From Promethearchaeota archaeon (GTDB lineage: Archaea > Asgardarchaeota > Lokiarchaeia > Sigyniarchaeales > SOKP01): DNA of 22,075 nucleotides. This document shows positions 1,961 to 17,705 of this stretch, piece after piece. The notes below the pieces were generated by a model. It worked only from the letters and a program-made list of their open reading frames with translations. It was not told the DNA's origin and ran no database searches. Each line of letters starts with the position of its first letter. The stretch's first letter is position 1. The stretch lies in NCBI GenBank assembly GCA_048938445.1, contig JBHLME010000074.1, positions 1-22,075 on the forward strand. Direction: 5' to 3'. A program made the position numbers and the translations under genes.

Positions 1961-3316
1961 TCATTTTTTCTTTATTTTAGAATACCAATGATAAAGTAAA
2001 CTGTAACCTCTTACTGCCCTTTCTATTTCATTATCAAAGACAGGTAATTTTATTTTAGAAGCAGTATTTAGGACTCTTTTTGCTCCCTCTCTTTCTGCTT
2101 GAATTAGAATAGTGATAATCGGTTTATCAGGATATTGATTCTTTATTCTCTCAAAAACACTGAAATCAAACTCGATTTCGATAAAAAATTCAAGAGCAAG
2201 AATCAATCCATCTACATTTTTATCATTCAAGAGAGTGTTAGCAGAAGTAGTATAAATCCCACAAATTTTAATTCCAATAAATTTTTCGGGGGGCCAATAA
2301 TCTACAGGATTACCATATGAACAAGTTGACCCTCCAACTTTATCCACGATAATACTACGAGATTCTTCATTAGGTCGCGCAAGTGATAAATTTTGTTTTC
2401 TCATTTCTTTTACTATCAAATGTATTGCCCCCGAGCTTGGACCTATTATTCCTAAATTAACACCTTTAGGTTCAGGACACCATAAAAATATCTTAGCAAT
2501 TTCAAAAAGTTCAATATAGTTTTCAACAGCAATAGCTCCGGCTTCACTAAGTTCCCTTTCCTTTTGATCATCTTTACCTACATGAAAAATCAAAACAGGT
2601 TTATATAATGATACTTTTTTAACTGCTTTAATTAATTCATCTGAAATTTCCCTTAAAAATAACGAGATAACTTTTGTTGTATCATCATTTAAAAAATGTT
2701 CAAGCACATCTGCTTCATTTACGTGAAATCCTTGACCTAAATGAATCACTTTTGAAATAGGTAAATGTTGTGAAGGAGTCCACCACCCCATGGCACCAGC
2801 TAAACCCCCAGATTGAGTGATGAAACTCACGCCTTCCTTGACATTTTTATTTTCCTTCATTATATGTTGTCGCACGGGAATGATTGAGGTAGTAAAGTTA
2901 TCATTAAAATTAATTATTCCTAGCATTGAAGGTCCTAAATAGGTTATATCATATCTTTCACAGAGCTCACGCAATCTCTTAGCTTTATCATGAACATCCG
3001 TTCCAGGTTTTAATTCAGTTTGTATTGCAACATATTTTACCCCTATTTGTCCCAATTTTTCCACGATCTCAAGTATATTTTTTCCTAAGACAATTATTGC
3101 TAACTCAGGGATTTCTGGTAATTCTTCAAAAGCGTGATAAGATTTAACTCCTAAGATTTCATTGGCATTTGGATTTAAAATATAGAGACGACCATGGTAA
3201 AATATTTCCAATAAGTTTTTTAATATCGTATAACTAAATGAGAGGGCTTCTCTAGACGCTCCAATTATTAAAACACTTTTAGGATTAAAAAAGGGACCAA
3301 GTTTATTTTTTTCCAT
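1961..3316 (-). CDS. CoA-binding protein, ADP-forming acetate/acyl-CoA ligase alpha-subunit-like (apparently lacking the catalytic His loop)
   Basis: FFNPKSVLIIGAS start, LGPSMLGI (GPNCLG equivalent), TQSGG, NPVD and KPIIT motifs match ACD alpha. No SHTG motif. SD-like AGAAGGTG upstream on the minus strand. Confidence 0.85.
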   Translation of the reverse strand: MEKNKLGPFFNPKSVLIIGASREALSFSYTILKNLLEIFYHGRLYILNPNANEILGVKSYHAFEELPEIPELAIIVLGKNILEIVEKLGQIGVKYVAIQTELKPGTDVHDKAKRLRELCERYDITYLGPSMLGIINFNDNFTTSIIPVRQHIMKENKNVKEGVSFITQSGGLAGAMGWWTPSQHLPISKVIHLGQGFHVNEADVLEHFLNDDTTKVISLFLREISDELIKAVKKVSLYKPVLIFHVGKDDQKERELSEAGAIAVENYIELFEIAKIFLWCPEPKGVNLGIIGPSSGAIHLIVKEMRKQNLSLARPNEESRSIIVDKVGGSTCSYGNPVDYWPPEKFIGIKICGIYTTSANTLLNDKNVDGLILALEFFIEIEFDFSVFERIKNQYPDKPIITILIQAEREGAKRVLNTASKIKLPVFDNEIERAVRGYSLLYHWYSKIKKK

Positions 3317-3629: not shown

Positions 3630-6600
3630 ATGCAAAAGATTAAAATTAAAATGAAAAATACGAATTTAATTTCTATCATGTTTATCATATTTTTCATTAC
3701 TCCTATAATTGGAAATATATTCACATTTACGAACATTGTCTCTAATAAATATCAAAATGAAAATGTAAATGATTTTGGACTAAAAACAAGTGGAGATAAC
3801 ATTAATATTACCACTCCAGAGAATAGAACCTACACGGCTCCAATGAACGGATATTATCCCGCCACGCATGGATTTGAAAGTGATACTGATGGGACATTTC
3901 CTGTTGGATGGATAGATACAAGCCAACCAGGATGTAGTGCTCAGATCATTCCAGAATTAGGAGGTCATAAAAAAGTCTTTGAATTTAATGATAATGATTA
4001 TTCTAATCAGGTATTTGTCACAAATCTCTTTAATGAAATCAGGACCATTGATGGTGATACTATCGAGTTTTGGTGGAGAACTTCAGATTCGTCCAAAATT
4101 GGAGATGTTAGAGCATACGATTCGGGATTAACTACTATAGGGGTATATCTTCAAATCTCCAATGGTTATTATCAATACTGGGATGGAGTTGACTTGAATA
4201 ATTTAGCACCTTGTGGGAGCAATGTGTGGTATCATCATAAAATCGTTATATCATTTAGCACATCAACATTTAATTGGTACATTGATGGTAATTTACTTGG
4301 GACAAATTTACAATTATTTACAATAGACTTAGCATCATTTGTATTTTCAAGTACAAATGTGGGTTCTGGTCATACCAATTATTTAGATGCTATCAGCTAC
4401 TCTTGGGATCCGGATTACACCATTGGAGATAATATGAACGAAGGATTATTGCTCAGCTATGAAAATAGCACTGTCTTGGATTGGACGGGATATTCCTTGG
4501 ATGGAGCAGCAAACATTACTATTCAAGGTACTACGACGATCCCAATGCCTACTAGTGATGGATTGCATTCAATTCAAGTATTTGGGAATGAAACGAGTGG
4601 AATCATGCATACTTCTGACATCCGATATTTCACTACTAGTGCAATTGGAATCATTACACCCGAAAATAGAACTTACACGGCACCAATGAGCGGGTATTAT
4701 CCTGCAACGCATGGATTTGAGAATGATGTTGATGGTTTAGATCCTGTTGGATTTACCGCTTATGAAGGAACAGGTTGTTCAATAACAGTCTTGAATTCGC
4801 TAGGAGGCCATCAAAAAGTGGTAGAATTATATGATGGGTCCTCTGGAGATTATAATAATGCTATTTTAGAGCATAATTTTAGTCCCAAGACAATAGGCAC
4901 GGTTGAGTTTTGGTTTAGGAGAACTGGAGTTGATGAAGGTGGTAAAATGAGGCTCTGGAATAACTTAGGAACGATCGCACTTAATTTTCGTGAATATCTT
5001 GGATGGTTTCAGTATGAAAATGGCACGGATTTTATCAATATCATACCTCGAATTAATGACCAATGGTATCACATCCGATTTGATTTCAATACTATTTCCG
5101 ACACGGTTGATATTTATATTGATAATGTTTTAAGATTGGATGATCAACCTCTTACAGCAAGCGTGGATTCTGTGACTTCATTTAAGATCTCAACTAATCA
5201 ATTGGGTTCAAGTGATTATAGTTCATATGTAGATGCTATAGGATACTCTTGGGATCCAAATTATAATATAGGAGATAACATTAACGAGGGGTTATTGCTC
5301 AACTATGAAAATAGCACTGTCTTGGATTGGATGGGATATTCTTTAGATGGAGCAGCAAACATCACCATTCAAGGTACTACGACGATCCCAATGCCTACTA
5401 GTTACGGATTGCATTCAATTCAAGTATTTGGGAATGAAACGAATGGAATTATGCATACTTCTGACATCCGATATTTCACTACTAGTGCAATTGGAATCAT
5501 TACACCCGAGAATAGAACTTACACCTCACCAATGAGCGGGTATTATCCTGCAACGCATGGATTTGAGAATGATAATGATGGAACCAATCCTAAAGGATGG
5601 ATTATTAGTGAGCCAGGTTTACAGCAAGTGGATGTAATTTCAAGTTTTAATGGACATAATAAAGTGTTAAGATTATTTGATACCGAGTCAGGAGGAGGAG
5701 CGCAAGCACAGGCTACTAAGACGTTTTCACCTCAAACCACGGGTTCCATAGAATTCTGGTATTTAACTAGTGGTTATCAAGAAATGTGTAATGTAAGAAC
5801 GTGTGAAACATATAATACAATTGCTGCAATTAATTTCTGTAGTAATTTGGGTAATTTTTGGTATGAGAATGGAACTGATTGGATTTCAATTGCTACTTGT
5901 AATAGTAACCAGTGGTATCATGTAAAATTTGAATTTAATTGCTCGACTGATACTTATGATATCTTTATAGAGGATAATTTAATTTTAAATGATGCTCCTT
6001 TCTCTGGATCAGTACCATCAATAACAACAATTGAGATTCTTACAAGGCAGTGGGGAACCTCAAGTGACTACTACATGTACATAGACGCCCTAGGGTTATC
6101 TTGGGATCCTGATTACGCCATTGGAGATAACCTGAACGAGGGATTGTTGCTTAGCTATGAAAACAGTACTGTCTTGGACTGGGTGGGATATTCCTTGGAT
6201 GGAGCAGCAAACATCACCATTCAAGGTACAACGACGATGCCAATGCCTATTAGTTATGGATTGCATTCGATTCAAGTCTTTGGGAATGAAACGAGTGGAA
6301 TCATGCATACTTCCGACACACGATATTTCACTACAAGCGCAATTGGAATCATTTCACCCGCGAATAGAACTTACATCGCACCAATGAACGGATTTTATCC
6401 TGCCACGTATGGATTCGAAAATGATTTAATTGGATGTTTGCCACAAGATTGGACTTCTGACGAAATTGGTGGAACCTCTAGTGTAATTTATGAATTACAA
6501 GGACATAAATACGTGTTAGAAATGAATGATACTAATTCTAATAATTTGATATTAACTAAGAATTTCACAGAGCAAGTTACTGGAACAATAGAATTTTGGC

Positions 6601-9269
6601 TGTATTTAACTGATACTAATCTCAATGGATACACATTTAGAATTGATGATTCAGGAACGTCTAATGGAATATATTTATTGATCCGTTGGAATGAACTACG
6701 TCATTATCCTACAGCATCTTCTGTAAAACTTATGGATTATAACTTTGATAATGAATGGAAACATTGGAGAATAGAATGGGATTGTACAGATGATTGGCAT
6801 CTATGGATTGATGGAGTCAGTATTGATGCGGGTATCGGCTATAGTTATTGGTTACCTCCGATAGCAATGGATGGATTATTATTTTCTACACCAGGAGCTG
6901 AAAGTGGATTTCAAGCAAATATGGATGGGTTTGGATTTTCTTGGGATCAGGATTATTCAATTGGAGATAATATAAATGAAGGATTATTCCTTGGCTTTGA
7001 AAATAGCACCGTTTTGGACTGGATGGGCTATTCTTTAGATGGAACAGCAAACATTTCCATTCAAGGCAACACGACCATTCCAATGCCAGATGACGGCCAT
7101 CATACCATCCAAGTATCGGGAAATAGCACTGGAGGAATATATTACCAGTCGGATGTCAGGCACTTTACCGTGAAAAACGGCTTGATTTCGATTAAAACGC
7201 CTAAAAACATTACTTATACGACACCAATGAACGGATATTACCCTGCTACCTATGGATTTGAAAATGATCAATTTGGAGATCTCCCCTTAGATTGGATAGA
7301 TTGGTCTGGAAGTACATGTACAGTTGGAGTTATTGATTCTATTAGTAATTTTAATAAAATTTTAGAATTTAATGATCCCTCGAGTAGCGGACGAGCAAAT
7401 ATTATACAGCCCTTTCAATTAGCTCAATCTTCTGGAACCGTAGAGTTCTGGGTAAGAGCAACGACAACAACAAACCAGTTAATGATTGCTATTTTTGAAA
7501 CCAATGCAGTTGATGAGCTTTACATTCAATTAAGTGAAAATGGGTATATTAGATATTTTGATACCATATATCATGATATCACAACCTACGAGGCAAATAA
7601 ATGGTATCATTTCAGAGTGGAATTTGATACTACATCAGATTGGCATTTATGGATTGATGGGATCTCTCAGGATGGGGGTGCGGGGTATAATTTTAGAGGT
7701 AATCCGACTTCATTAAATACATTACAATTTTATACAGGAGTATCTAGTGGTTCAACATATTACATTGATGCAATTGGATATTCCTGGGATCTCCACTATA
7801 ACATTGGAGATAACTTAAACGAGGGATTATTGCTCAGTTTTGAAAATAGCACTGTCTTGGATTGGATGGGATATTCCTTGGATGGTGCAGCAAATATCAC
7901 CATTCAAGGCAACACGACCATTCCGATGCCCACGGGAAATGGATTGCACTCGATTCAAGTGTTTGGTACCACGCCCGATGGATATACCATCCAATCCGAC
8001 AAGCGTTACTTCTCTCTCGATTGGGAATACATTTATTTAAGACCAAGCCTTAACATCTTGGACATAATTGATGAATATGGCTTGCATATTGAAATTAATC
8101 TTAATGAAATAGGATTCTTGCACGTTAGTAACTTTTCTTTTACGATTCCGATAATGACTGACCTCGGTTATGGTCTATCCACGATGTACTTCTATAGCAT
8201 TGACTTGTATAGTGCTAATTTTGTTAAAGATGAGTCGATTCTTATGAGTATCACCATTAGATTTTATTATGATCCCTTGAAAATCAACGACCCCTCAGTT
8301 CTTAAGCTTTATCACTACGTTTCCAGCTTGGGGCAATGGCGCTTGGAAGGATTTGTTACAAACTTAATGCAAAATTACGTGGAACTAACTACCACCGATT
8401 TATCATATTTTTGCTTGACTGAGATAGATATTCCAGTCAATACATTTCCATGGCTCATCATCATCATAATCATTTTAAGTGCTATTGGTATTTCAATCCC
8501 TTCAAGCTACGTCATTATCTCACGTCGCAAGAAAAATAAAGGAGATAAGTATAAATCATTAAGAAAAAGAGAACATCACGCAAAAGAGTTACCAACTTTG
8601 CAAGATGAAAAATCTCGTCAAGTAAAAACCGTAAAACCACAAATCACTCCCGAAATGCTCACTCCAATCAAACCAAGGGAATTAAAAAGTATCATCAAGG
8701 TAAAAAAACCTAAAAAAGCTATAAAAACTAAAGTTGATGACCCTACAATTCATAATATAACTCTTAGTAAAAAAGAAATCGAAGAAGTAAAGAAAACTGA
8801 AAAGGAAATGCGCATTTTGAATCAAGAAGATTTCTGTCAAGTCCATAAAGGGCCATTAACAGGAATGACATATATTTGCCCTAAATGTAAAGCAAAATAT
8901 TGCGTGAAATGCGCTACATCATTATCACAACGAAAAGAAGGATGCTGGGTTTGTGATACTATTATAAAAATTGAATCCAATAAACAGGAATCAAAACCTC
9001 AAAATAAAAAGACTCCATTACTAAGAACGCTTGATAATAGTAAATTAAAAGAAATTTTTAAAAGTAAAAATATAACTGAAACTATTGAAAATATAGGTGA
9101 TATTAATATTTCCATTTTAGATAAAGAATTTTTGAAAAAGGTAAATCAATTTAAATGGGAAGAAAATGAAAAGCAGGAATTTATAAATGAAATGATAGCA
9201 TTACCTCCTTCAAAACGAGAAAAAATCTTAAATCGGATGATCAAATTATCCAAATATAAAGAGGATTAA
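3630..9269 (+). CDS. Giant single-pass cell-surface receptor-like glycoprotein: signal peptide, 5x (Ig-like domain with inserted ConA/LamG-like domain), membrane-proximal beta domain, TM, cytoplasmic Zn finger and helical tail
   Basis: 1879 aa. N-terminal hydrophobic leader, five ~281-aa repeats, many N-x-S/T sequons, TM at ~8445-8519 followed by RRKK, and C-x2-H...C-x2-C-x4-C-x2-C-x10-C-x2-C at 8835-8954. AAGGT SD-like site upstream. Confidence 0.88.
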   Translation: MQKIKIKMKNTNLISIMFIIFFITPIIGNIFTFTNIVSNKYQNENVNDFGLKTSGDNINITTPENRTYTAPMNGYYPATHGFESDTDGTFPVGWIDTSQPGCSAQIIPELGGHKKVFEFNDNDYSNQVFVTNLFNEIRTIDGDTIEFWWRTSDSSKIGDVRAYDSGLTTIGVYLQISNGYYQYWDGVDLNNLAPCGSNVWYHHKIVISFSTSTFNWYIDGNLLGTNLQLFTIDLASFVFSSTNVGSGHTNYLDAISYSWDPDYTIGDNMNEGLLLSYENSTVLDWTGYSLDGAANITIQGTTTIPMPTSDGLHSIQVFGNETSGIMHTSDIRYFTTSAIGIITPENRTYTAPMSGYYPATHGFENDVDGLDPVGFTAYEGTGCSITVLNSLGGHQKVVELYDGSSGDYNNAILEHNFSPKTIGTVEFWFRRTGVDEGGKMRLWNNLGTIALNFREYLGWFQYENGTDFINIIPRINDQWYHIRFDFNTISDTVDIYIDNVLRLDDQPLTASVDSVTSFKISTNQLGSSDYSSYVDAIGYSWDPNYNIGDNINEGLLLNYENSTVLDWMGYSLDGAANITIQGTTTIPMPTSYGLHSIQVFGNETNGIMHTSDIRYFTTSAIGIITPENRTYTSPMSGYYPATHGFENDNDGTNPKGWIISEPGLQQVDVISSFNGHNKVLRLFDTESGGGAQAQATKTFSPQTTGSIEFWYLTSGYQEMCNVRTCETYNTIAAINFCSNLGNFWYENGTDWISIATCNSNQWYHVKFEFNCSTDTYDIFIEDNLILNDAPFSGSVPSITTIEILTRQWGTSSDYYMYIDALGLSWDPDYAIGDNLNEGLLLSYENSTVLDWVGYSLDGAANITIQGTTTMPMPISYGLHSIQVFGNETSGIMHTSDTRYFTTSAIGIISPANRTYIAPMNGFYPATYGFENDLIGCLPQDWTSDEIGGTSSVIYELQGHKYVLEMNDTNSNNLILTKNFTEQVTGTIEFWLYLTDTNLNGYTFRIDDSGTSNGIYLLIRWNELRHYPTASSVKLMDYNFDNEWKHWRIEWDCTDDWHLWIDGVSIDAGIGYSYWLPPIAMDGLLFSTPGAESGFQANMDGFGFSWDQDYSIGDNINEGLFLGFENSTVLDWMGYSLDGTANISIQGNTTIPMPDDGHHTIQVSGNSTGGIYYQSDVRHFTVKNGLISIKTPKNITYTTPMNGYYPATYGFENDQFGDLPLDWIDWSGSTCTVGVIDSISNFNKILEFNDPSSSGRANIIQPFQLAQSSGTVEFWVRATTTTNQLMIAIFETNAVDELYIQLSENGYIRYFDTIYHDITTYEANKWYHFRVEFDTTSDWHLWIDGISQDGGAGYNFRGNPTSLNTLQFYTGVSSGSTYYIDAIGYSWDLHYNIGDNLNEGLLLSFENSTVLDWMGYSLDGAANITIQGNTTIPMPTGNGLHSIQVFGTTPDGYTIQSDKRYFSLDWEYIYLRPSLNILDIIDEYGLHIEINLNEIGFLHVSNFSFTIPIMTDLGYGLSTMYFYSIDLYSANFVKDESILMSITIRFYYDPLKINDPSVLKLYHYVSSLGQWRLEGFVTNLMQNYVELTTTDLSYFCLTEIDIPVNTFPWLIIIIIILSAIGISIPSSYVIISRRKKNKGDKYKSLRKREHHAKELPTLQDEKSRQVKTVKPQITPEMLTPIKPRELKSIIKVKKPKKAIKTKVDDPTIHNITLSKKEIEEVKKTEKEMRILNQEDFCQVHKGPLTGMTYICPKCKAKYCVKCATSLSQRKEGCWVCDTIIKIESNKQESKPQNKKTPLLRTLDNSKLKEIFKSKNITETIENIGDINISILDKEFLKKVNQFKWEENEKQEFINEMIALPPSKREKILNRMIKLSKYKED
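3801..8012 (+). repeat. Five intragenic tandem repeats, period 840-852 bp, each with a conserved block and a divergent block
   Basis: Conserved blocks begin at 4386, 5232, 6084, 6924 and 7767 (DA.GYSWD...YSLDG...RYFT...ITPENRTY...YYPATHGFEND). 4605-4663 is identical to 5451-5509 (59 bp) and 4681-4727 is identical to 5527-5573 (47 bp). Confidence 0.95.
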
Positions 9270-9271
9270 TC

Positions 9272-9937
9272 ATGGAAAAACAACGAAACAGGACAGTAAT
9301 GGAAAAAGTAGATTATGAAACAGTCATTTACTCGGAACTTCGTGATTATTTAAATAGTAATAAGATATTAAAACTTAATGAGGTTATTCCTTTTCTTACA
9401 GGACGAATAGCAAGATCTTCGCTAAATTTAAACAAGGTTGGAATAACCAAAATTCTTAAATCTTTCATTGACCGTAATATAATCGTAGAAGGATCAAAAC
9501 TGACAAGAGAAGATGTTCTTACAAATCCTAAAAGAAGGATAATATATGAGTTTATTAATCAAAATCCGGGAACATATTACTATCAAATTATTAAAGAATT
9601 AGAGATGGGAAGCCACTTGGTAATTTGGCATGTTGAAATTTTATTAGAATTTAATTTCATTAACATGATTGAAGAAGATAATCATGAATTATATTTTAAT
9701 CATAAGACAAAACCGGATATGGCAAAGTTAATTTATTACAGAACAAATGAAAAGAGCAAGAAAATTTTAGCTTACCTAAAGTCGAATAATACAGGAGTTA
9801 CCAAAACTGAAATATCCAAAAATCTTGACATGCACCCAACGACAGTAAAAAAATATATAGAGATACTAAAAAAGCATCAATTAATTCATTCTCTGAAAGA
9901 CAAGTATAAAACATTATATCTTTTAGACGAACTTTAA
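9272..9937 (+). CDS. Winged helix-turn-helix transcriptional regulator with tandem HTH domains (COG3398-like) and an N-terminal helical domain
   Basis: NPKRRIIYEFINQNPGTYYYQIIKELEM..HLVIWHVEIL and KILAYL...TKTEISKNLDMHPTTVKKYIEILKKHQLI are two ArsR-like wHTH units. Starts 2 nt after the upstream stop; alternative start at 9299. Confidence 0.85.
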   Translation: MEKQRNRTVMEKVDYETVIYSELRDYLNSNKILKLNEVIPFLTGRIARSSLNLNKVGITKILKSFIDRNIIVEGSKLTREDVLTNPKRRIIYEFINQNPGTYYYQIIKELEMGSHLVIWHVEILLEFNFINMIEEDNHELYFNHKTKPDMAKLIYYRTNEKSKKILAYLKSNNTGVTKTEISKNLDMHPTTVKKYIEILKKHQLIHSLKDKYKTLYLLDEL

Positions 9938-9999: not shown

Positions 10000-10641
10000 C
10001 TATGCTTCAACCTTCTCATATTTATCTATATCATAAATTGGAACTTCACGTCGTTTCTTATCATCATAAAAAGGTAAACCCGATTTTTTTAAAAATTCGA
10101 TTGCTTTATATTTCGTGACTACTATTTGGCTACCACACGAAATTTTCATACTTGCAACTCTTAACCTCTCTCTTACTAATGAGACATCTTTTAACTTGCA
10201 TCCCACGTCCAAGATAACTGCACCAGCTTTTACGCGAGCGCATACTCCTGTTGAGCGTCCAAAAGAGTTCCGCATACCACTTTGTACTCTGTCGGCTCCA
10301 GCAAATGCAAGCATTCTATTTTCTCTGTACTTTTGAAAAGGTTTTGACCTCATTCTTAGACGGAAATTATTTCTTCCTAATGTTTTTTGTAATGGAGTAT
10401 TAATTGCGATACGTATTGCCTCTAAAGCATTTGATGATATTTGAATTTGATTATTAACCTTAAGACCCAAGACAATCTCCCATTCTTCAAAAGGAATGTC
10501 TTTATTACCTCCCCAGAATCGAACTATCTTACTTTGAGCGCCTCCCCGAGCATATTCTCTTCTATGATTAGCACTTCGTTTATGTTGGTAAGGCCGCCTA
10601 TTCCATTTCGCATAACATTGCCATGGTCTTTTATGTGCCAT
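10000..10641 (-). CDS. rpl10e: 50S ribosomal protein uL16 (L10e)
   Basis: MAHKRPWQCY, QISSNALEAIRI, RENRMLAFAGADRVQSGMRNSFG and ARVKAG are diagnostic L10e motifs. SD-like GTAGGTAG upstream. Confidence 0.96.
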   Translation of the reverse strand: MAHKRPWQCYAKWNRRPYQHKRSANHRREYARGGAQSKIVRFWGGNKDIPFEEWEIVLGLKVNNQIQISSNALEAIRIAINTPLQKTLGRNNFRLRMRSKPFQKYRENRMLAFAGADRVQSGMRNSFGRSTGVCARVKAGAVILDVGCKLKDVSLVRERLRVASMKISCGSQIVVTKYKAIEFLKKSGLPFYDDKKRREVPIYDIDKYEKVEA

Positions 10642-10795: not shown

Positions 10796-11932
10796 ATGAT
10801 CGACACCCTAACGGCATTAAAGAAGAAAACTGAATTATTATGTAAAGGATTATATTTAGATAAAAATTTTCTGAAACATTATAAATCCCAAGGAATAGAA
10901 ATAGATTTTGGGCGAAAAGGAGGAGCAGGTCCATCAGGAGGTAGATATTTCCTATTAGAGGATCAAAAAACCTTAGTAAATGTAGCATTATGGAACGATT
11001 CATCAATTTCAAGTTTATCATTAAAGGAAACAGAAAATGGATTTTTTAAGATCTATGATGATCGCACGAAAGGAGAATTCGGTAAAGTAAAACTGATTCA
11101 AAATCCTAAATATTATGATAAGAATTTTCTAACCTCTGACGGAATTCAAATGAAAAAAATTGCTCTCGTTCACGGAGTCAATTGTTTAGCAACAACCATT
11201 TATCAACAATGCACTCATTGGGCTTGCGGAGAACCATGTAAATTTTGTGGAATACAAGTTACTTTAGAATCTGGATCAACAATTATAGAAAAAAATGCAC
11301 AACAAATTTGTGAAGTTATCTCTGAAGCCAAAAAAGAAGGACGCTGTTCTCACATGACATTAACTACAGGAACTGCTGAAGGAGAAGATAAAGGTGCGAG
11401 GAAATATATTGACATATTAAAAGGGATTAAAATGAAATATCCTAAACTTCCATTACACATACAAATTGAACCAGTTAATCATGCTATTCTAGTAGAGTTA
11501 AAAGAGGCAGGAGCAGATACGATAGGAATACACATTGAAATTGTTGATGAGCTCTTAAGAAAAGTAATTACACCTGGTAAATCAAAAATACCCTACTCAA
11601 AATTTAAAGATAGTTGGAATGACGCTATAGATGTATTTGGAAATAACCAAGTGGAGACTTTCTTATTAACAGGATTTGGAGAATCTAGAATTGAATTTCT
11701 TAAGGATGTTGAAAATCTCATTACTATAGGTGTGATCCCATATATCTTACCAGTTAGATCAGTTCCAGGAAAAACTTTAATGCCAATAATGAACTACAAT
11801 GCTTTATTAGAAATTTATGAGAAGACAGCAAAATTAATGAAGCAACATGGTATGAATCCTTTAAAAAATAAAGCTGGATGCGTGAGATGTGGTGGATGCA
11901 GTGCCATTAATGAAGCTTATAAAGCGGTTTAA
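10796..11932 (+). CDS. Radical SAM protein, MSMEG_0568-like family
   Basis: RKGGAGPS, KKIALVHG..CLATTIYQQC...CKFCGI, HMTLTTGT, TPGK and C-terminal AGCVRCGGCS match the motifs I recall for this family. Confidence 0.82.
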   Translation: MIDTLTALKKKTELLCKGLYLDKNFLKHYKSQGIEIDFGRKGGAGPSGGRYFLLEDQKTLVNVALWNDSSISSLSLKETENGFFKIYDDRTKGEFGKVKLIQNPKYYDKNFLTSDGIQMKKIALVHGVNCLATTIYQQCTHWACGEPCKFCGIQVTLESGSTIIEKNAQQICEVISEAKKEGRCSHMTLTTGTAEGEDKGARKYIDILKGIKMKYPKLPLHIQIEPVNHAILVELKEAGADTIGIHIEIVDELLRKVITPGKSKIPYSKFKDSWNDAIDVFGNNQVETFLLTGFGESRIEFLKDVENLITIGVIPYILPVRSVPGKTLMPIMNYNALLEIYEKTAKLMKQHGMNPLKNKAGCVRCGGCSAINEAYKAV

Positions 11933-12005
11933 TTTTTACATGAGTAAATTATAATATGTCAATTTCTAACCAGATGCGTTTAAATATTTTTAATAAATTT
12001 ATAGT

Positions 12006-12110
12006 TTATTACAACCATTAGTAGATATTGCTGATTATATAACGAATGTAGAAATGATCAAGCATCCGTTTAAGAGTGGAATTGATGCTCGAAAAGGTAT
12101 TGAATATTAA
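12006..12110 (+). pseudogene. 3' remnant of a cob(I)alamin adenosyltransferase (BtuR/CobO/CobA type)
   Basis: Reads LLQPLVDIADYITNVEMIKHPFKSGIDARKGIEY*, matching the BtuR/CobO C-terminus (AD.VTEM..IKHPF..G..AR.GIE(Y/F)). In-frame TAA at 11994 and no start codon. Confidence 0.8.
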
Positions 12111-12119
12111 ATTTCAAAA

Positions 12120-12845
12120 TCATTCATATTGAAATTTTTCTATTTTTTGTAGAGGAAACTCAAATTCTATTACAATATAATTACTTTCATCATTTTTAGA
12201 TGTTTTATAATCTACTACATTGCATTTAATATCCATATTGAATATTTCGGATATCCTTGCTTCAAAAAATCCTGACAATAAATAATAATGATAGATATAT
12301 TCACCATTATCTTCCAGAAGTTTTGAATTCTTCATGTGGTATATGATACGGTTTTTCTCAGCCATAATTGAAATATCAAGGGGATCAATTCTATAGAAAA
12401 TATTATCAAAATATTTACGATATTCTTTTGTGAAAAATTTGATGAGATTCATTTTCTGGATATTTTCTTGATCTTTTATTTTTTCACCTATTTGCAACAC
12501 ATTTTGAATAAATGGATAATCAGCAATTCTCTTTCCAAGATTCTTGATAAAATCTTCTTTATTAGGTAGATCCCTTTTAAGAGCACCTACTAGAGATTTA
12601 TAAAATGCAATTACTAGTTCAAATGATAGAGATTTTCTTTCTTTCGCATAGTAGACGCTTGCCGTTCCAATATTTTCTTTAAAAACTTTGCCTTCCGCTT
12701 CTAATATCCCCAAATATTTGGAAACCGTATTTCGATTCCCATTAATCTTTTTTGCCAAGTCAATAATGGTTAATCCAAACAATTCACCTTGTAGGCAATT
12801 TAAAACCTTGTTTTTATATTTTTTGCTTTTTTCTTTTCTTTCCAT
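12120..12845 (-). CDS. HTH transcriptional regulator with a C-terminal V4R/H-NOX-like ligand-binding domain
   Basis: GLTIIDLAKKINGNRNTVSKYLGILEAEGKV is an HTH. The C-terminal part (LGKRIA...HYYLLSGFFEA...CNV) has a V4R-like pattern. ATG at 12845 preferred over the TTG at 12911, which adds a low-complexity poly-A-derived segment. Confidence 0.72.
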   Translation of the reverse strand: MERKEKSKKYKNKVLNCLQGELFGLTIIDLAKKINGNRNTVSKYLGILEAEGKVFKENIGTASVYYAKERKSLSFELVIAFYKSLVGALKRDLPNKEDFIKNLGKRIADYPFIQNVLQIGEKIKDQENIQKMNLIKFFTKEYRKYFDNIFYRIDPLDISIMAEKNRIIYHMKNSKLLEDNGEYIYHYYLLSGFFEARISEIFNMDIKCNVVDYKTSKNDESNYIVIEFEFPLQKIEKFQYE

Positions 12846-13057
12846 GGATTTTTCAATAATTTCAAGTATTATTATATGTAAGAATTCTTTTTTTTTTTTT
12901 AAATTTATCAATATTAATATTTTATCACTTAGTACTAGTTTATTAAAATTAATAAATGTAAAAATAACTCTTTATATTTTCATATTACATCATTTTTGTA
13001 CATTTTGGTAAAAATATAATCTTTAAATAGTATCTCTACAAATAGTTAAAATAAGTA

Positions 13058-13118: not shown

Positions 13119-14321
13119 ATGTCAAAAAAAGTAGCTGCAGCTGCGATTATTTTGATTGCTTTTGGAGGAGTTTCTATTCCTGGTGGAATTGTTATAAATA
13201 ATTACATAAAAGATCTCACATATAGTTCAATAGATGAAGGACTTCTAGGCATCCGAACTGAAGGTATTCCAATGGTGGAACACATGGTTAATTGCACGTT
13301 TTTTGCAACATTTCTTAATCTTCTATATAATAATGATGATAATAACTTAAACTCGATTTTCAATGATTCTCTATTTGAAATAACTGCATTAGGCATTCAT
13401 GTTCGTAGTATTGCGAATTATACTGGTTTAGGAGACTTGAATTATTCCTATCTAGCCTGTAAACGCCTCCTTTTAGGAAATGAAACACCTAGCTTGGGTT
13501 ATATTCCAGGTTTGATAGAAGATATCGATACGGGTGAAGGGATAATTAACTTCTTAGAGGATTATAACGAGGCGCAAATTAACACAATAAAACGAAATGA
13601 AATGATTGATGATTATAAATGTAATTGGGATCATTTAACATACTTAGTTGATTATTACAATAGCTTTTTTGTTCCAGAAACAATACCCCAACTTCTACCA
13701 TTGGTGTCATCTCTTAAACCAGAATTAGCAGGATTAAATAATACTCTTGAAATAGCAGAATATTATCTATATGCTCAATGGGCATGGGGTAATTTAAAAC
13801 CTGAGGGATTTCCTTTACCATTAGGAGATATTGAAGTATATGGTTTCGAAGTAGGATATCAGGGTCCAGGAATTAACGTTACTTCCACAAACATGACAAG
13901 AGAAGCAATGTATCTCCTATGGAACACATCAAATCCCTTATCTTTGGTTATAAAAACGGGTGTAAATGCATGGTTAGGTGCGGTTAATGGTGATGCAGTT
14001 CTACAATCCCTCCTATTAACTGAAAATAATCTTACTTCTGAAAGCTTGGCCATGATATTAGAATGGATTCCAAAGTTTCAGCAAAATGTGATGCCTTTCC
14101 TTGCTCAATATCAAATGGGATTGCCAACTGATTCTATTACATTAGGAAATATAATTCAAGTTGCAGCTATAGGCCTTGGTGGAGTATGTATAGGATTAGG
14201 TGGAGTTGCAATAACAGGTAATGTGGTTGCTAAACGAAAAAAATTGGCAAAAAAGCAAATAGGCACATTAGATAAATCAAAGTCAGTAGAAAAAGGAGAT
14301 TCCGAACAAAAATATATATAA
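13119..14321 (+). CDS. Hypothetical membrane protein with N- and C-terminal TM helices and a large extracytoplasmic loop
   Basis: 400 aa. TM1 VAAAAIILIAFGGVSIPGGIVI, TM2 IIQVAAIGLGGVCIGLGGVAITG then KRKK. Several N-x-S/T sequons. GGGAG SD upstream. Confidence 0.85.
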   Translation: MSKKVAAAAIILIAFGGVSIPGGIVINNYIKDLTYSSIDEGLLGIRTEGIPMVEHMVNCTFFATFLNLLYNNDDNNLNSIFNDSLFEITALGIHVRSIANYTGLGDLNYSYLACKRLLLGNETPSLGYIPGLIEDIDTGEGIINFLEDYNEAQINTIKRNEMIDDYKCNWDHLTYLVDYYNSFFVPETIPQLLPLVSSLKPELAGLNNTLEIAEYYLYAQWAWGNLKPEGFPLPLGDIEVYGFEVGYQGPGINVTSTNMTREAMYLLWNTSNPLSLVIKTGVNAWLGAVNGDAVLQSLLLTENNLTSESLAMILEWIPKFQQNVMPFLAQYQMGLPTDSITLGNIIQVAAIGLGGVCIGLGGVAITGNVVAKRKKLAKKQIGTLDKSKSVEKGDSEQKYI

Positions 14322-14643: not shown

Positions 14644-16287
14644 ATGGAACACATGACTGAAAGTCAAGAGAAAAAAACCTCTAAGACAAAAAGGGAAGAA
14701 AGGCAACCTAAATTCAAGAACTTGTCCGATATTGAAATTAAAAGACTTTATACCCCAGAAGATATTAATAATTTCAATTATACTCAAGATTTAGGAGAAC
14801 CAGGTAAATATCCCTTTACAAGAGGCGCCTATCCTTCTATGTATAGAGGTCAATTCTGGACCATGCGCCAATTTGCAGGTTTAGGTACTGCAGAGCAAAC
14901 TAACGAACGCTTTAAGTTCTTAATTGAACATGGTCAGACAGGTTTAAGTGTAGCTTTTAGCCTTCACACCATTTATGGATATGAAGCTATTGATCCGCAT
15001 TCATTAGGAGAAATCGGCAAGGAAGGTGTTGCTATTGATACTTTAAAAGATATGGAAATCTTATTTGATGGAATTGACCTTTCAAAAATCAGCACTAGCA
15101 TGACTATTAATGCTCCAGCAGCTATTTTACTTGCAATGTATATTGTTGTTGCTGAAAAACAAGGCCACACGCCCCCTCAATTAAGAGGGACTATTCAAAA
15201 TGATATTTTAAAAGAATATATAGCACAAAAATCATGGATATTCCCCCCAGATCCTTCAATACGTTTAATTATTGATACAATCGAATATTGTACTAAAAAT
15301 GTTCCCCAATGGTATACCATTAGCATAAGCGGATATCACATTCGCGAAGCAGGTTCAACTGCTGTTCAAGAATTAGCATTTACACTAGCAGATGGTTTTG
15401 CTTATGTTGAAGCAGCAATGGAGAGAGGAATTGATGTTGATGATTTTGCTCCTAGATTATCATTCTTTTTTAACTCGCATAATAATTTTTTTGAAGAAGT
15501 ATGTAAATACCGAGCAGCAAGAAGAATATGGGCAAAACGGATGAAAAATAAATATGGAGCAAAAAAACCAGAATCTATGAGGTTAAGATTTCATACTCAA
15601 ACTGCTGGAGTTTCATTGACTGCTCAAGAACCTGAAAATAATATTGTAAGAGTAACTTTACAAGCATTGTCTGCAGTATTAGGAGGCACTCAATCATTAC
15701 ATACAAATTCATTTGATGAAGCATTATGTCTTCCGACAGAAAATGCTGCTAAAATTGCTTTAAGAACTCAACAAATAATTGCTCACGAATCTGGGATAGC
15801 AGATACAGTCGATCCTTTAGCAGGTTCTTATTATGTTGAATGGCTTACTAATAAAATGGAAGAAGAAGCTGAACTTTATTTTGATAAAATTGAAGAATTA
15901 GGGGGTGTTATCCCTGCGATCAAGGCAAATTTCTTCCAGAAAGAAATCGCTAATGCTTCTTATAAATATCAACAAGAAATAGAAAATAATGAAAGAACAA
16001 TCGTTGCTGTTAACCAATATAAACAAAGAGATTCTTGTTCTACTGAAATTCTAAAAATAGATGATTCTATTGCTGAAGAACAAATAAAAAAGTTGAATGA
16101 TGTGAAAAATTCAAGAGATAATGAAAAAGTTGCAGATAAGTTAAAAGAACTTAAAAAAGCTGCTGAAAGAACCGAAAATTTGATGCCCTTCATTATGGAT
16201 GCTGTAAGAGAATATGCATCAATTGGAGAAATAATGAATGTTTTAAAGGAAGTATTTGGTGTGTATAAGGAAGATTCAATATTTTAA
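14644..16287 (+). CDS. icmA: B12-dependent acyl-CoA mutase large (substrate-binding) subunit, isobutyryl-CoA mutase type
   Basis: YPFTRG, WTMRQFAG, GTIQNDILKEYIAQK, ISISGYHIREAG and QSLHTNSFDEA motifs. F77/Q195 occupy the positions of MCM Y89/R207. The start may be 14653. Confidence 0.88.
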   Translation: MEHMTESQEKKTSKTKREERQPKFKNLSDIEIKRLYTPEDINNFNYTQDLGEPGKYPFTRGAYPSMYRGQFWTMRQFAGLGTAEQTNERFKFLIEHGQTGLSVAFSLHTIYGYEAIDPHSLGEIGKEGVAIDTLKDMEILFDGIDLSKISTSMTINAPAAILLAMYIVVAEKQGHTPPQLRGTIQNDILKEYIAQKSWIFPPDPSIRLIIDTIEYCTKNVPQWYTISISGYHIREAGSTAVQELAFTLADGFAYVEAAMERGIDVDDFAPRLSFFFNSHNNFFEEVCKYRAARRIWAKRMKNKYGAKKPESMRLRFHTQTAGVSLTAQEPENNIVRVTLQALSAVLGGTQSLHTNSFDEALCLPTENAAKIALRTQQIIAHESGIADTVDPLAGSYYVEWLTNKMEEEAELYFDKIEELGGVIPAIKANFFQKEIANASYKYQQEIENNERTIVAVNQYKQRDSCSTEILKIDDSIAEEQIKKLNDVKNSRDNEKVADKLKELKKAAERTENLMPFIMDAVREYASIGEIMNVLKEVFGVYKEDSIF

Positions 16288-16301
16288 ATAAGAGGAATAA
16301 C

Positions 16302-16703
16302 ATGACAGAACAAAAAATTATAAAAGTATTAGTATGTAAACCCGGATTAGATGGACATGATAGAGGTGCTAAAGTAATTGCTCGTGCTTTACGAGATGCT
16401 GGAATGGAAGTAATATATACGGGACTTCATCAAACGCCCGAGGATATTGTTAATACTATCATCCAAGAAGATCCAGATGCGGTAATGTTAAGTTTTTTAA
16501 GTGGAGCACACAATGCATTATGTCCTGTAATTATGGAAAAATTAAAAGAACATTGTATAGATGACGTTTTAATTGGAGTAGGTGGTATAATTCCGGAAGA
16601 AGATAAGATTCCATTAGAAAAACTCGGATTTTCTGGTTTTCATGGACCTGGTACTGAATTAAAAGAAATTGTTGAGTTTGTTAGAAATAATTTAAAGAGA
16701 TAA
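16302..16703 (+). CDS. Cobalamin-binding small subunit of the acyl-CoA mutase (IcmB/McmB-like)
   Basis: KPGLDGHDRGAK (DxHxxG), SFLSGAH and GGIIP motifs. GAGG SD upstream. Confidence 0.95.
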   Translation: MTEQKIIKVLVCKPGLDGHDRGAKVIARALRDAGMEVIYTGLHQTPEDIVNTIIQEDPDAVMLSFLSGAHNALCPVIMEKLKEHCIDDVLIGVGGIIPEEDKIPLEKLGFSGFHGPGTELKEIVEFVRNNLKR

Positions 16704-16709
16704 ATAGAA

Positions 16710-17705
16710 ATGAATTATTCTGATTTAATTGCAAAATTATATGATGGAAATACTCGAGCCGCTGCACGTTTGATTACTATCGTTGAAAATGATATTGCCG
16801 CTTCTGAAGTGATTATTAATTCCATTTATAAAGATACTGGAAATGCATATATCTTAGGAGTTACTGGTGCACCCGGAAGTGGAAAAAGCACTTTTATCTC
16901 AACTATCACAAAGAAATATTTAGATCAAGGTAAAAAGATTGGAATAGTATGTGTTGATCCAACTTCTCCTCTTACGGGGGGTGCTTTGTTAGGAGATAGA
17001 ATTCGAATGAAGGAAAATTTCTCACTTGATAACGTATTCATCAGGAGCATGGCAAATCGCGGACAACTTGGAGGATTAGCAAGAGCGACTGAAGATACAA
17101 TTAAAATCTTAGATGCATATGGATGTGATATTATAATAGTAGAAACGGTAGGAGTAGGACAATCGGAAGTAGATATTTTTAAATCAGCTCACACGGTAAT
17201 AGTTTTATTGGTACCAGGTATGGGAGATGATATCCAAGCAATAAAAGCAGGTATCATGGAAATTACTGACATCTTTGCTGTAAATAAAATGGATTTACCT
17301 GGTGCAGACAGAAAAGTTTCAGATATCATTCAAATGCTAGAATTAAACATGAATTATAATTACACTTCGAATAATATCAACAAGGATATCGCAAAATTAA
17401 AACAATGGCTACCAGAAATCATAAAAATTAACTCAAAAACTGGTGAAAATTTTGATGATTTATTAGAAATCATTGATAAGCATAAAAAATTTGTAGATAA
17501 ATCAGAAATCAATACAAGTTACATGGTAAATAGGATTAAAAGTGAAACTATTCAAATCCTTCGACATAAATTAACAAAAAAAATTGAAGATTTATTAAAT
17601 TCTAATAAAATTATTGAAGAAAATATCTCTCAAGTCCTTGATAAAACACTTGATCCATATTCAATGGCAAATTTAATAATAAAATTAATTGGTTTAAAAA
17701 AATAA
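16710..17705 (+). CDS. meaB: Mutase-associated GTPase MeaB/ArgK
   Basis: GAPGSGKS P-loop, VDPTSP, GGALLGDRIRM, ETVGVGQSE and NKMD motifs. Confidence 0.95.
   Translation: MNYSDLIAKLYDGNTRAAARLITIVENDIAASEVIINSIYKDTGNAYILGVTGAPGSGKSTFISTITKKYLDQGKKIGIVCVDPTSPLTGGALLGDRIRMKENFSLDNVFIRSMANRGQLGGLARATEDTIKILDAYGCDIIIVETVGVGQSEVDIFKSAHTVIVLLVPGMGDDIQAIKAGIMEITDIFAVNKMDLPGADRKVSDIIQMLELNMNYNYTSNNINKDIAKLKQWLPEIIKINSKTGENFDDLLEIIDKHKKFVDKSEINTSYMVNRIKSETIQILRHKLTKKIEDLLNSNKIIEENISQVLDKTLDPYSMANLIIKLIGLKK

Follow-up and report, generated by a model that had tools for sequence, protein, structure and literature searches.

The membrane protein SdpI of Bacillus subtilis sequesters the ArsR-type autorepressor SdpR at the membrane, no kinase being involved, and anti-sigma/ECF sigma factor pairs, notably RsgI-SigI of Clostridium thermocellum, include membrane proteins with carbohydrate-binding ectodomains. 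Spt23 and Mga2 are membrane-tethered transcription factors with ubiquitin-dependent processing. To our knowledge, hardly anything has been described of Asgard signal transduction apart from catalogues of kinases and small GTPases. Here we describe a gene pair on contig JBHLME010000074.1 of a Promethearchaeota archaeon, the entire 22,075 bp of which were analysed and are called the window below. The first gene (P0001) encodes a predicted membrane protein, referred to as the receptor, with lectin-type repeats, a zinc finger and a C-terminal helical domain (the tail domain); the second (P0002) encodes REG, a protein of three winged-helix domains (WH1 to WH3). The docking domain and its three-winged-helix partner are unnamed, and the gene pair is undescribed as far as the literature was searched. 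We read the pair as a kinase-free membrane receptor/regulator module built from new parts and confined to a single family of Promethearchaeota, an interpretation toward which the evidence leans somewhat. A first-pass annotation of the window had proposed a eukaryote-like receptor logic here; such logic is not exclusive to eukaryotes, as bacteria also have kinase-free membrane sequestration (SdpI-SdpR, anti-sigma factors). The assembly is a metagenome bin (4.63 Mb, 29.6% G+C, estimated contamination 8%), and the whole analysis was computational.

Recurrent pairing of the tail domain with REG

A hidden Markov model (HMM) of the last ~72 residues of the receptor matched 6 proteins in the genome, all encoded directly beside a REG paralog. 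In five, the membrane protein gene was followed by REG with gaps of 2–35 nt, and in one, REG was followed by a 278-amino acid (aa) protein with two transmembrane segments. Paralogs with different ectodomains carry the same tail as the receptor: the six proteins included two with lectin/LamG domains, two with NosD-like right-handed beta-helices (E 1e-43 to 1e-82), and the small protein, which has almost no ectodomain. Conversely, of the 8 close REG paralogs in the genome, 6 were paired with membrane proteins. Matches to the tail profile were obtained in 29 of 41 close genomes and, in a phylum-wide sample, in 63 of 301 genomes. Broken down by family, the profile matched 57 of the 68 genomes belonging to the family of the window; three further families gave matches in 1 of 7, 1 of 1 and, weakly, 3 of 4 genomes, and the other 26 families gave none in 220 genomes. 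The weak matches (E 3e-6 to 2e-5) came from G041, G052 and G072, very small genomes (1.3–1.4 Mb) that make up three of the four examined in a distant family, and may reflect chance or a remote relative. A search of 1.84 billion proteins matched the domain to 323 cluster representatives (E ≤ 0.001), with 201 reaching E ≤ 1e-10, mostly at the extreme C-terminus of proteins with widely differing lengths, and up to about 20 matches were present per genome.

Loci from other genomes (87 in total, a subset of all matches consisting of the best match per genome and 36 more, mostly from two copy-rich genomes) were fetched and yielded 90 non-identical tail-bearing frames. REG was encoded on the same strand within 600 nt of 72 of these (50 downstream, 22 upstream) and was fused in frame to a further 4, while chance adjacency, calculated from ~9 REG genes per ~4 Mb, is estimated at well under 1 in 90. 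A congeneric genome keeps the window's own pair, with REG 66–68% identical, the tail 63% identical and the finger present. In the window, both open reading frames (ORFs) were present as described in the first-pass annotation, with the regulator starting 2 nt past the receptor stop codon. The terminator scan revealed no hairpin terminator at this junction (terminator and sigma-70 scans were otherwise uninformative for an archaeon), and DNA contigs from another sample and from another study spanned it with no differences; no RNA run was listed as containing the locus.

These counts bear on the simplest alternative, that a functional link is absent and an ordinary surface adhesin or S-layer-type protein lies next to an unrelated winged helix-turn-helix (wHTH) gene. 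Archaea commonly have large surface proteins rich in repeats, and wHTH genes are numerous, with about 20 REG-HMM matches of any strength in this genome, but adjacency in 6 of 6 cases in the genome and 76 of 90 elsewhere, fusions included, makes the alternative very improbable, as do the predicted interface described below (0.72 against 0.01) and the 248-aa structured cytoplasmic region of the receptor. A plain S-layer or adhesin protein was also rejected as a description of the receptor itself, since such a chain should stop soon after its anchor and here 248 residues containing two confidently modelled domains follow the transmembrane helix, in agreement with the ~250-aa folded cytoplasmic tail annotated earlier.

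The first-pass annotation had proposed the finger and the tail together as the unit that couples to the regulator and had expected it to recur beside REG across genomes. The recurrence was borne out, and the coupling is carried by the ~70-aa helical tail and not by the zinc finger, because just 13 of the 90 tail proteins have the finger, which also occurs on proteins whose contigs encode no REG. The domain, whose earlier bounds (9102–9269) were slightly short, had no Pfam or NCBIfam match and no telling structural match, being hardly tested in the VIA list. Physical pairing of the receptor tail and REG is, in our judgement, highly probable.

A complex of REG and the tail domain was modelled using our own, unpaired alignments (38 rows for REG, 46 rows for the tail). 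Interface scores (interaction prediction score from aligned errors, ipSAE) were 0.72, 0.74 and 0.72, compared to 0.00, 0.00 and 0.01 for three controls, and the runs agreed in at least 85% of contacts, with a partner predicted local distance difference test score (pLDDT) of at least 72. In a benchmark, which is rough since own alignments were used, 58 of 80 solved complexes attained this mark, compared to 2 of 110 mismatched pairs. The modelled interface on REG comprises residues 20–38, 65–77 (the E-G-S-K-L-T stretch) and 114–126; the WH2 "recognition helix" engages the tail, and the contacts of lowest error are those of W119 in REG with F44 and E47 in the tail (F1851 and E1854 of the receptor), all three residues being nearly invariant. 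The tail is therefore predicted to dock on WH1–WH2 of REG with WH3 left free, the tail-regulator interface that the first-pass annotation had anticipated. We know of no solved complex of this kind; ScpA-ScpB, in which tandem winged helices grip a helical partner, is a sequence-unrelated precedent.

Distant REG-like proteins (E 1e-17 to 1e-27) were found at three other loci of the genome (L009, L010 and L011, on contigs C112, C139 and C159), each with a multi-transmembrane protein of ~430–550 aa encoded upstream or downstream. This protein was duplicated in tandem on C159, and the partner on C112 had two tail-like helical repeats beyond the reach of the tail HMM. These pairs may represent another, more ancient layer of this theme. 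Distant REG-like proteins of other families matched over WH2-WH3 only, and in the 7 of their loci that were inspected there was neither a tail nor an obvious paired membrane partner.

Architecture of the receptor and of REG

Coordinates of all features are listed in Table 1. At the N-terminus of the receptor, the hydrophobic segment earlier called a signal peptide was present, and signal peptide and signal anchor were left as alternatives. The ectodomain (~1570 aa, Lys-poor and rich in Thr, Ser, Asn and Gly) had been read as five Ig/ConA-like units, of which the five repeats and their ConA-type lectin character stood. Tandem Repeats Finder was silent, the ~845-nt period being above its limit, and the five copies were revealed by a direct-repeat search (families D1–D3, spacing 840–852 nt, identity 66–91%). 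Contigs of another sample and of another study were broken at the repeat borders, so that the copy number of five is that of the present assembly. Two stretches matched the Pfam family PF22585 Sialidase-like_CBM (carbohydrate-binding module; E 5.6e-11, 43 bits, cut-off 27), which has a ConA-type lectin fold. The paralog on C168 matched Laminin_G_3 slightly under the cut-off (25.6 against 27.6 bits), and a PDB sequence search using one ectodomain repeat returned zero relatives. The repeats are thus of lectin type by sequence and are predicted to bind carbohydrate. A juxtamembrane segment, which closes with a P-[FW]-P-W motif ahead of the transmembrane helix, was conserved when the last 300 aa were compared.

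Hydropathy, charges and composition agreed with the single transmembrane helix, RRKK stop-transfer and ~100-aa charged linker of the first-pass annotation; the C-terminal end of the linker was modelled with low confidence. There were no Lys or Arg residues in the 15 aa preceding the helix and 8 in the ~20 aa following it, and Lys content was 1.7% in the ectodomain and 19% in the tail. Because of this charge asymmetry and the Lys contrast, the sequence fits an N-outside, C-inside topology, which places the C-terminus in the cell as annotated earlier. N-glycosylation sequons in the outside portion were not enriched over shuffled sequences (29 observed, 22.5 ± 4.3 expected) and were for that reason not used as topology evidence.

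REG was modelled with a pLDDT of 91.8 and a predicted template modelling score (pTM) of 0.80; the tandem winged helices annotated earlier were present as three domains, not two. In VIA, WH3 superimposed on MarR, ArsR/SmtB, IclR, MecI and Z-alpha domains with Z 10.3–11.9 and a root mean square deviation (rmsd) of 1.1–1.5 Å over 59–65 residues. REG passed the Pfam cut-offs of HTH_11 and HTH_24, Rpc34 fell slightly under, and NCBIfam matches (SdpR, Csa3 HTH, Sso10a, ArsR, Lrs14) were all under their curated cut-offs. Membership in SdpR or ArsR-SmtB was rejected (NF033789, 29.8 bits against 100, E 4e-7; NF033788, 21.6 against 55), as was an ECF sigma factor (Sigma70_r4_2 as the only match, E 0.12, 12.5 bits against 25.7). 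Rpc34 (PF05158) was rejected because the score was 26.5 bits against 28.4 and there were 8 close paralogs where a single-copy core gene is expected, and ESCRT-II because PF04157 and PF05871 were unlisted for REG at E ≤ 1 and a separate EAP30 gene exists. Public databases contained 40 matches to REG, the best 75% identical and all from Promethearchaeota archaeon, labelled "hypothetical protein" or "winged helix-turn-helix transcriptional regulator". REG is more likely than not a DNA-binding regulator, and DNA binding would be through WH3.

Foldseek searches with whole REG gave a different ranking, with Rpc34, ScpB, ESCRT-II EAP30 and UFL1-DDRGK1 (8iue_P, 3e-5; 3w6j_E, 1.5e-4; 3cuq_A, 1.8e-4; TM-scores about 0.26). 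This ranking favours the alternative that REG is not a transcription factor but a tandem winged-helix scaffold of a ubiquitin-like system, in which the tail would be a recruitment tag for sorting, quality control or turnover and the zinc finger, of RING-like fold, a ligase module. Use of the WH2 "recognition helix" for the tail in the model, and conservation of the WH3 helix across paralogs, are in keeping with this alternative. On the other side, WH3 is nearest to genuine DNA-binding repressors (Z 10–12), above ESCRT-II (Z 10.4 with rmsd 8 Å, TMq 0.22–0.25), it lies above the Pfam cut-offs for HTH_11 and HTH_24, and the genome has its own EAP30/Vps22 gene. The sole close REG paralog without a tail-bearing or transmembrane partner (contig C109, 36288–36959) is encoded 15 kb from that gene.

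REG was also found joined covalently to membrane segments. One congeneric genome (G005) encodes four distinct paralogs in which ectodomain, transmembrane helix, basic stop-transfer, linker, tail and complete REG are in one frame. In a second form, a REG subfamily of ~350 aa has an N-terminal transmembrane segment, a 60–90-aa loop and a second hydrophobic segment followed by REG (7 of 7 fetched; the second segment was flagged by the hydropathy threshold in 4 of 7 and read by eye in the remaining 3). This subfamily occurs in many genomes of the family, with about 20 frames of 333–388 aa listed, and a more distant protein on C145 is membrane-anchored via a signal peptide, a ~200-aa ectodomain and one transmembrane segment. 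As tail pairing, fusions and self-anchored forms all place REG there, membrane attachment, covalent or non-covalent, is its common denominator.

For grouping only, a quick tree of 81 REG sequences was built after partial HMM matches and duplicates were dropped, and was midpoint-rooted for drawing only, with no claim as to which group is the older. REGs of the ubiquitin-type locus described below (core REGs) formed one group with short branches (98 SH-aLRT, the Shimodaira–Hasegawa-like approximate likelihood ratio test), and receptor-linked, fused and self-anchored REGs formed the other, with long branches and genus-specific bursts; the four G005 fusions were one clade (100 SH-aLRT). In this radiation, receptor and REG were duplicated together, one for one, as is typical of specific signalling pairs.

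The fused forms also bear on whether the pair signals at all. In a homeostatic assembly-feedback loop, REG would autoregulate the operon and the tail would titrate REG so that expression tracks inserted receptor, the ectodomain being an adhesin or glycan binder without signalling. A single operon with a 2-nt spacer would suit such a loop, as would the highly diverse ectodomains, almost missing in some partners (for example the ~270-aa type with two transmembrane segments), and no sequence sign of a conformational relay across the single transmembrane helix was seen. Titration is impossible in the in-frame fusions and self-anchored REGs, however, and these would be left unexplained, together with the RING-like finger and the ubiquitin-operon context; we regard the loop as improbable.

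Table 1. Positions of the receptor/REG pair, of other genes in the window and of related loci outside it. Unprefixed positions are those of the window; L, G and C numbers are our handles for loci, genomes and contigs, and G000 is the genome of the window.
Feature	Position	Strand	Remarks
Receptor gene P0001, predicted 1879-aa type I membrane protein	3630..9269	+	ORF list, translation
N-terminal basic region and hydrophobic segment (aa 1–31), putative signal peptide or signal anchor	3630..3722	+	hydropathy peak aa ~13–31
Five tandem ~845-nt (~282-aa) ectodomain repeats	3813..8060	+	each a ConA/lectin-type CBM and a smaller module
Juxtamembrane ectodomain region (aa ~1478–1607)	8061..8450	+	common to paralogs C168 and C127
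Single transmembrane helix (aa ~1608–1631) and RRKK stop-transfer (aa 1632–1635)	8451..8534	+	hydropathy, flanking charges
Lys/Glu-rich cytoplasmic linker (aa 1636–1735)	8535..8834	+	composition
Eight-ligand cross-brace zinc finger, RING/U-box-like fold (aa 1736–1775)	8835..8954	+	
C-terminal helical tail domain (aa 1808–1879)	9051..9266	+	proposed REG-docking domain, unnamed family
Gene junction TAA-TC-ATG	9267..9274	+	2-nt spacer
REG, 221-aa protein of three winged-helix domains, P0002	9272..9937	+	
REG WH1 (aa 15–77, conserved E-G-S-K-L-T motif) and WH2 (aa 86–142, invariant W119/H120)	9314..9697	+	predicted tail-binding face
REG WH3 (aa 148–218), canonical DNA-binding-type wHTH	9713..9925	+	outside predicted interface
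CoA-binding acyl-CoA synthetase-type gene	1961–3316	-	
Ribosomal protein L10e	10000–10641	-	
Radical SAM gene	10796–11932		
263-aa wHTH protein	12120–12911	-	weak HTH_24; REG-HMM match to WH3 only, E 3.6e-6
400-aa protein	13119–14321	+	signal peptide, C-terminal transmembrane segment, short basic tail
Methylmalonyl-CoA mutase operon	14644–17705	+	large subunit (747 bits), B12-binding subunit, MeaB GTPase
Ubiquitin-type locus L101	G000:C32 4622–14722		same order in L102–L104, L108, L109
Small ubiquitin-like proteins	L101:9725–10072 and 11920–12261	-	18 relatives in L015–L065
EAP30/Vps22 (ESCRT-II) gene	C109:21381–21749		
Finger-ending membrane proteins without tail	G000 contigs C204, C230, C13, C60, C7, C3		
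Fusions of ectodomain, transmembrane helix, tail and REG	L071, L072, L074, L077 (G005)		~950 aa plus
Self-anchored ~350-aa REG subfamily	L006 (G000:C48) 342–1382; L132–L138		

Among the other genes of the window, the 263-aa wHTH protein and the 400-aa protein form a divergent gene pair; the tail domain is absent from both.

The zinc finger and the ubiquitin-type locus

The eight-ligand finger (C1736, H1739, C1750, C1753, C1758, C1761, C1772 and C1775), which the first-pass annotation had located exactly, was modelled with a pLDDT of 86–92. Its ligand pattern was kept in 9 proteins of the genome, with Cys columns invariant in alignment A5. RING/U-box domains (e.g., Nse1, RNF146, Hrd1, TRAF6 and Ring1B) filled nearly all of the top 50 rows of VIA matches, at Z 5.0–6.5 and rmsd 1.6–2.5 Å over 48–50 residues, values that are middling for a domain this small. 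Foldseek with the finger and tail model gave no match at E ≤ 0.001 and a weak list of RING/ZZ domains, and leads from the finger to RING-finger clusters in the Atlas (0.76–0.78) were under the 0.9 bar. In Pfam, neither zf-RING nor zf-C3HC4 matched at E ≤ 1, and weak matches were to C1_4 (0.1), ANCHR B-box (0.24), zf-B_box (0.58) and FYVE_2 (0.79). Because no curated RING model matched and the ligand spacing (C-x2-C/x4/C-x2-C) is B-box/ZZ-like, where RING expects C-x-H/x2-3/C-x2-C, the finger is, as modelled, RING-like in fold only.

The finger was present on 3 of the 6 tail-bearing proteins of the genome and also on six other membrane proteins (five multi-transmembrane, and one single-transmembrane with beta-helix-like repeats), which lack the tail and are encoded on contigs without REG. 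The finger is thus distributed independently of REG, and these six proteins are candidate membrane-bound RING-type ligases. Two other arrangements were observed in relatives. At L096 (G002:C33, 2241–3143), a REG homolog downstream of a tail-bearing membrane protein has a finger fused at its own C-terminus. At L070 (G005:C157, 1980–8907), three small finger-and-tail proteins (frames of 189–325 aa) and one separate finger protein accompany a single REG, which seems to be common to several docking partners.

Outside the window is the REG-tail pair with the highest conservation, made up of REG and a ~270-aa protein with two transmembrane segments, found once in most genomes of the family. This partner ends in a ubiquitin-like (Ubl) domain (Pfam ubiquitin, E 0.006; an Atlas cluster of 87 members). 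At locus L101 of the window's genome, one strand encodes an unknown 382-aa protein, a JAB/MPN protein, an E2 (UQ_con), an E1 (ThiF) and a ubiquitin-like protein; on the opposite strand, divergent from these, are REG and the tail-Ubl membrane protein, followed by a second, convergent ubiquitin-like gene. Beyond it are genes for a 399-aa coiled-coil protein and a 351-aa nucleotidyltransferase-like protein, and in this genome a leucine-rich repeat (LRR) protein gene lies between E2 and E1 on the other strand. Pfam scores were 193 bits for ThiF, 88.9 for UQ_con and 48 for JAB; against Pfam ubiquitin (cut-off 25.4), one ubiquitin-like gene scored 26.5 bits and the other, slightly under, 23.9. Among nine core loci from other genomes with long flanks, five had E1, E2 and JAB, one was cut inside E1 by the contig end, two had only the ubiquitin-like and unknown genes, and one had none of these upstream; a ubiquitin-like gene was the divergent neighbour of REG in 8 of the 9. 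In the small ubiquitin-like proteins, the N-terminus is extended by an acidic stretch and the C-terminal motif is P-A-S-[IT]-A-G. Of 18 relatives, 12 stop directly at A-G and 6 have 2–7 extra residues, the latter resembling modifier precursors that require trimming.

In the intergenic region between the ubiquitin-like gene and REG, a block of ~35 nt (L101, ~10134–10170) was more conserved than its surroundings in 22 genomes. The first half of the block resembles a TATA-type promoter element, and an exact copy of its second half lies ~136 nt upstream of a finger-bearing multi-transmembrane gene on C204. Promoter, operator and small RNA are all candidate roles for the block; when the genome was scanned for its two halves, the 132 and 270 loose matches returned were uninformative. 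Passages of PMC9192718 describe Lokiarchaeota as holding ubiquitin and ESCRT genes in two separate regions and make no mention of REG or the tail-Ubl gene. The literature, as far as its passages were available, contained no description of the tail domain, of the pair or of its placement at the ubiquitin operon; the genes may appear without names in figures or supplements of PMC9192718 and PMC10936438.

This locus also bears on the scaffold alternative introduced above. The most conserved pair stands divergently beside ubiquitin-like, E1, E2 and JAB genes, its membrane partner ends in a ubiquitin-like domain, and the finger has a RING/U-box-like fold. A divergent site beside an operon is also the classic place of that operon's regulator, however, the finger is on a minority of tail proteins, and a single adaptor would be enough for numerous cargoes, whereas each partner has its own duplicate of REG. 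Taken with the structural comparisons, a scaffold role for REG, the main alternative, appears rather unlikely.

The same evidence can be combined with the receptor/regulator reading. Proteins with a RING-like finger and a REG-docking tail would then form a receptor class grown out of the ubiquitin operon, in which sensing of extracellular glycans or contacts would cause a transcription factor held at the membrane to be processed, degraded or given a ubiquitin-like modification. We consider this extension doubtful. Relay by degradation of the regulator, one variant named in the first-pass annotation, nonetheless gains some footing from the ubiquitin-operon link and the RING-like finger, short of proof.

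Proposed mechanism and comparison with known systems

In the receptor/regulator module as we picture it, the receptor and REG genes would be co-transcribed as one unit and the five lectin-type repeats displayed outside the cell. The last ~70 residues of the receptor would fold as a helical domain that grips WH1 and WH2 and holds REG at the membrane, leaving WH3 free as the likely DNA-binding output. How much REG is held, released, clipped or modified would depend on whether the receptor is bound to glycans or engaged in cell contact, on its clustering or on its turnover. As covalent forms of REG exist, release, where it occurs, would probably be via cleavage or modification; otherwise REG would act on DNA from the membrane in a ToxR-like manner. 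The architecture, topology signals, recurrent adjacency, natural fusions and predicted interface are computational observations, and ligand sensing, the direction and means of the relay and any ubiquitin step we infer from them; for an environment-dependent relay the chances seem even.

Several points weigh against this interpretation. No REG was adjacent to 14 of the 90 tail frames, although several of the 14 are fragments, short or weak. Paralogs have much the same recognition helix in WH3, with K194, Y195 and L199 nearly invariant, contrary to what would be expected from diversified operator specificities. The predicted interface was only mildly more conserved than its surroundings (permutation values 0.03 for whole REG, 0.18 within WH1–WH2 and 0.03 for the tail), and the complex score is the confidence of a model built from unpaired alignments and no measurement. 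The fusions and transmembrane-anchored REGs mean that simple reversible release cannot be general, so that cleavage or action at the membrane would be needed, and the position of the most conserved pair at the ubiquitin-type locus suits the scaffold alternative equally.

What can be defined is a lineage-specific family of kinase-free receptor/regulator pairs, marked by a ~70-aa docking domain and a three-winged-helix protein, the sensor ectodomains of the receptors being interchangeable. The model provides a residue-level binding hypothesis for this family that is accessible with recombinant fragments and is culture-free. Because its most conserved member is inside a ubiquitin-like operon and RING-like fingers occur on its proteins, the family may give a first handle on targets of the Asgard ubiquitin system and may show whether ubiquitin-controlled, membrane-tethered gene regulation predates eukaryotes. 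If the ubiquitin-linked receptor proposal were true, it would be evidence that such signalling is older than eukaryotes, and the system would be an archaeal counterpart of eukaryotic membrane-tethered factors, with Spt23/Mga2- and NRF1-like logic.

Among described systems, SdpI-SdpR is alike in that a membrane protein encoded beside a small wHTH regulator holds it (here, as proposed), and SdpR was the best NCBIfam match of WH3. REG differs from SdpR in having two extra winged helices that are predicted to dock, and it missed the SdpR cut-off; SdpI is multi-pass, whereas the present receptor is very large, crosses the membrane once and has a lectin-type ectodomain and, at its C-terminus, a domain dedicated to the proposed docking. 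The present module is also archaeal and linked to a ubiquitin operon, a tie for which we know of no bacterial parallel. Anti-sigma/sigma pairs share with it one-to-one duplicated pairs, varied sugar-binding ectodomains on a constant cytoplasmic binding domain (both functions being predicted for the present module), and adjacent genes, putatively co-transcribed here, and the carbohydrate-sensing RsgI-SigI set comes closest to it in spirit. In contrast, REG is no sigma factor, archaea use TBP and TFB, the binding domain is at the C-terminus of the membrane protein here and at the N-terminus there, and no proteolytic cascade was identified for the present module.

The fused and transmembrane-anchored REGs resemble ToxR, CadC and TcpP in that a single chain combines the sensor, the transmembrane segment and a domain of DNA-binding type. 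In ToxR-type proteins, an OmpR-type wHTH lies at the N-terminus and a periplasmic domain at the C-terminus; the present proteins show the opposite order, and their winged-helix array is unrelated. TcpP and ToxR are named in the abstract of PMC11323476. The finger is comparable to RING E3 ligases, including the membrane-bound Hrd1 (6a3z; Z 5.5, rmsd 2.0 Å, 47 residues), in fold and in its position on membrane-protein tails, and the genome encodes ubiquitin-like, E1, E2 and JAB proteins. It differs from them in ligand spacing and in lacking a Pfam RING match, and its ligase role is putative. With the tandem winged-helix scaffolds Rpc34/RPC6, Vps22/EAP30 and ScpB, REG shares the whole-protein Foldseek matches, and ScpB likewise grips a helical segment of ScpA; unlike them, REG is multi-copy, membrane-linked and under the Rpc34 cut-off. 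By the sequence tests the module is a member of none of these systems; by analogy, it would work like SdpI-SdpR and the anti-sigma/sigma pairs and, in its fused forms, like ToxR and CadC.

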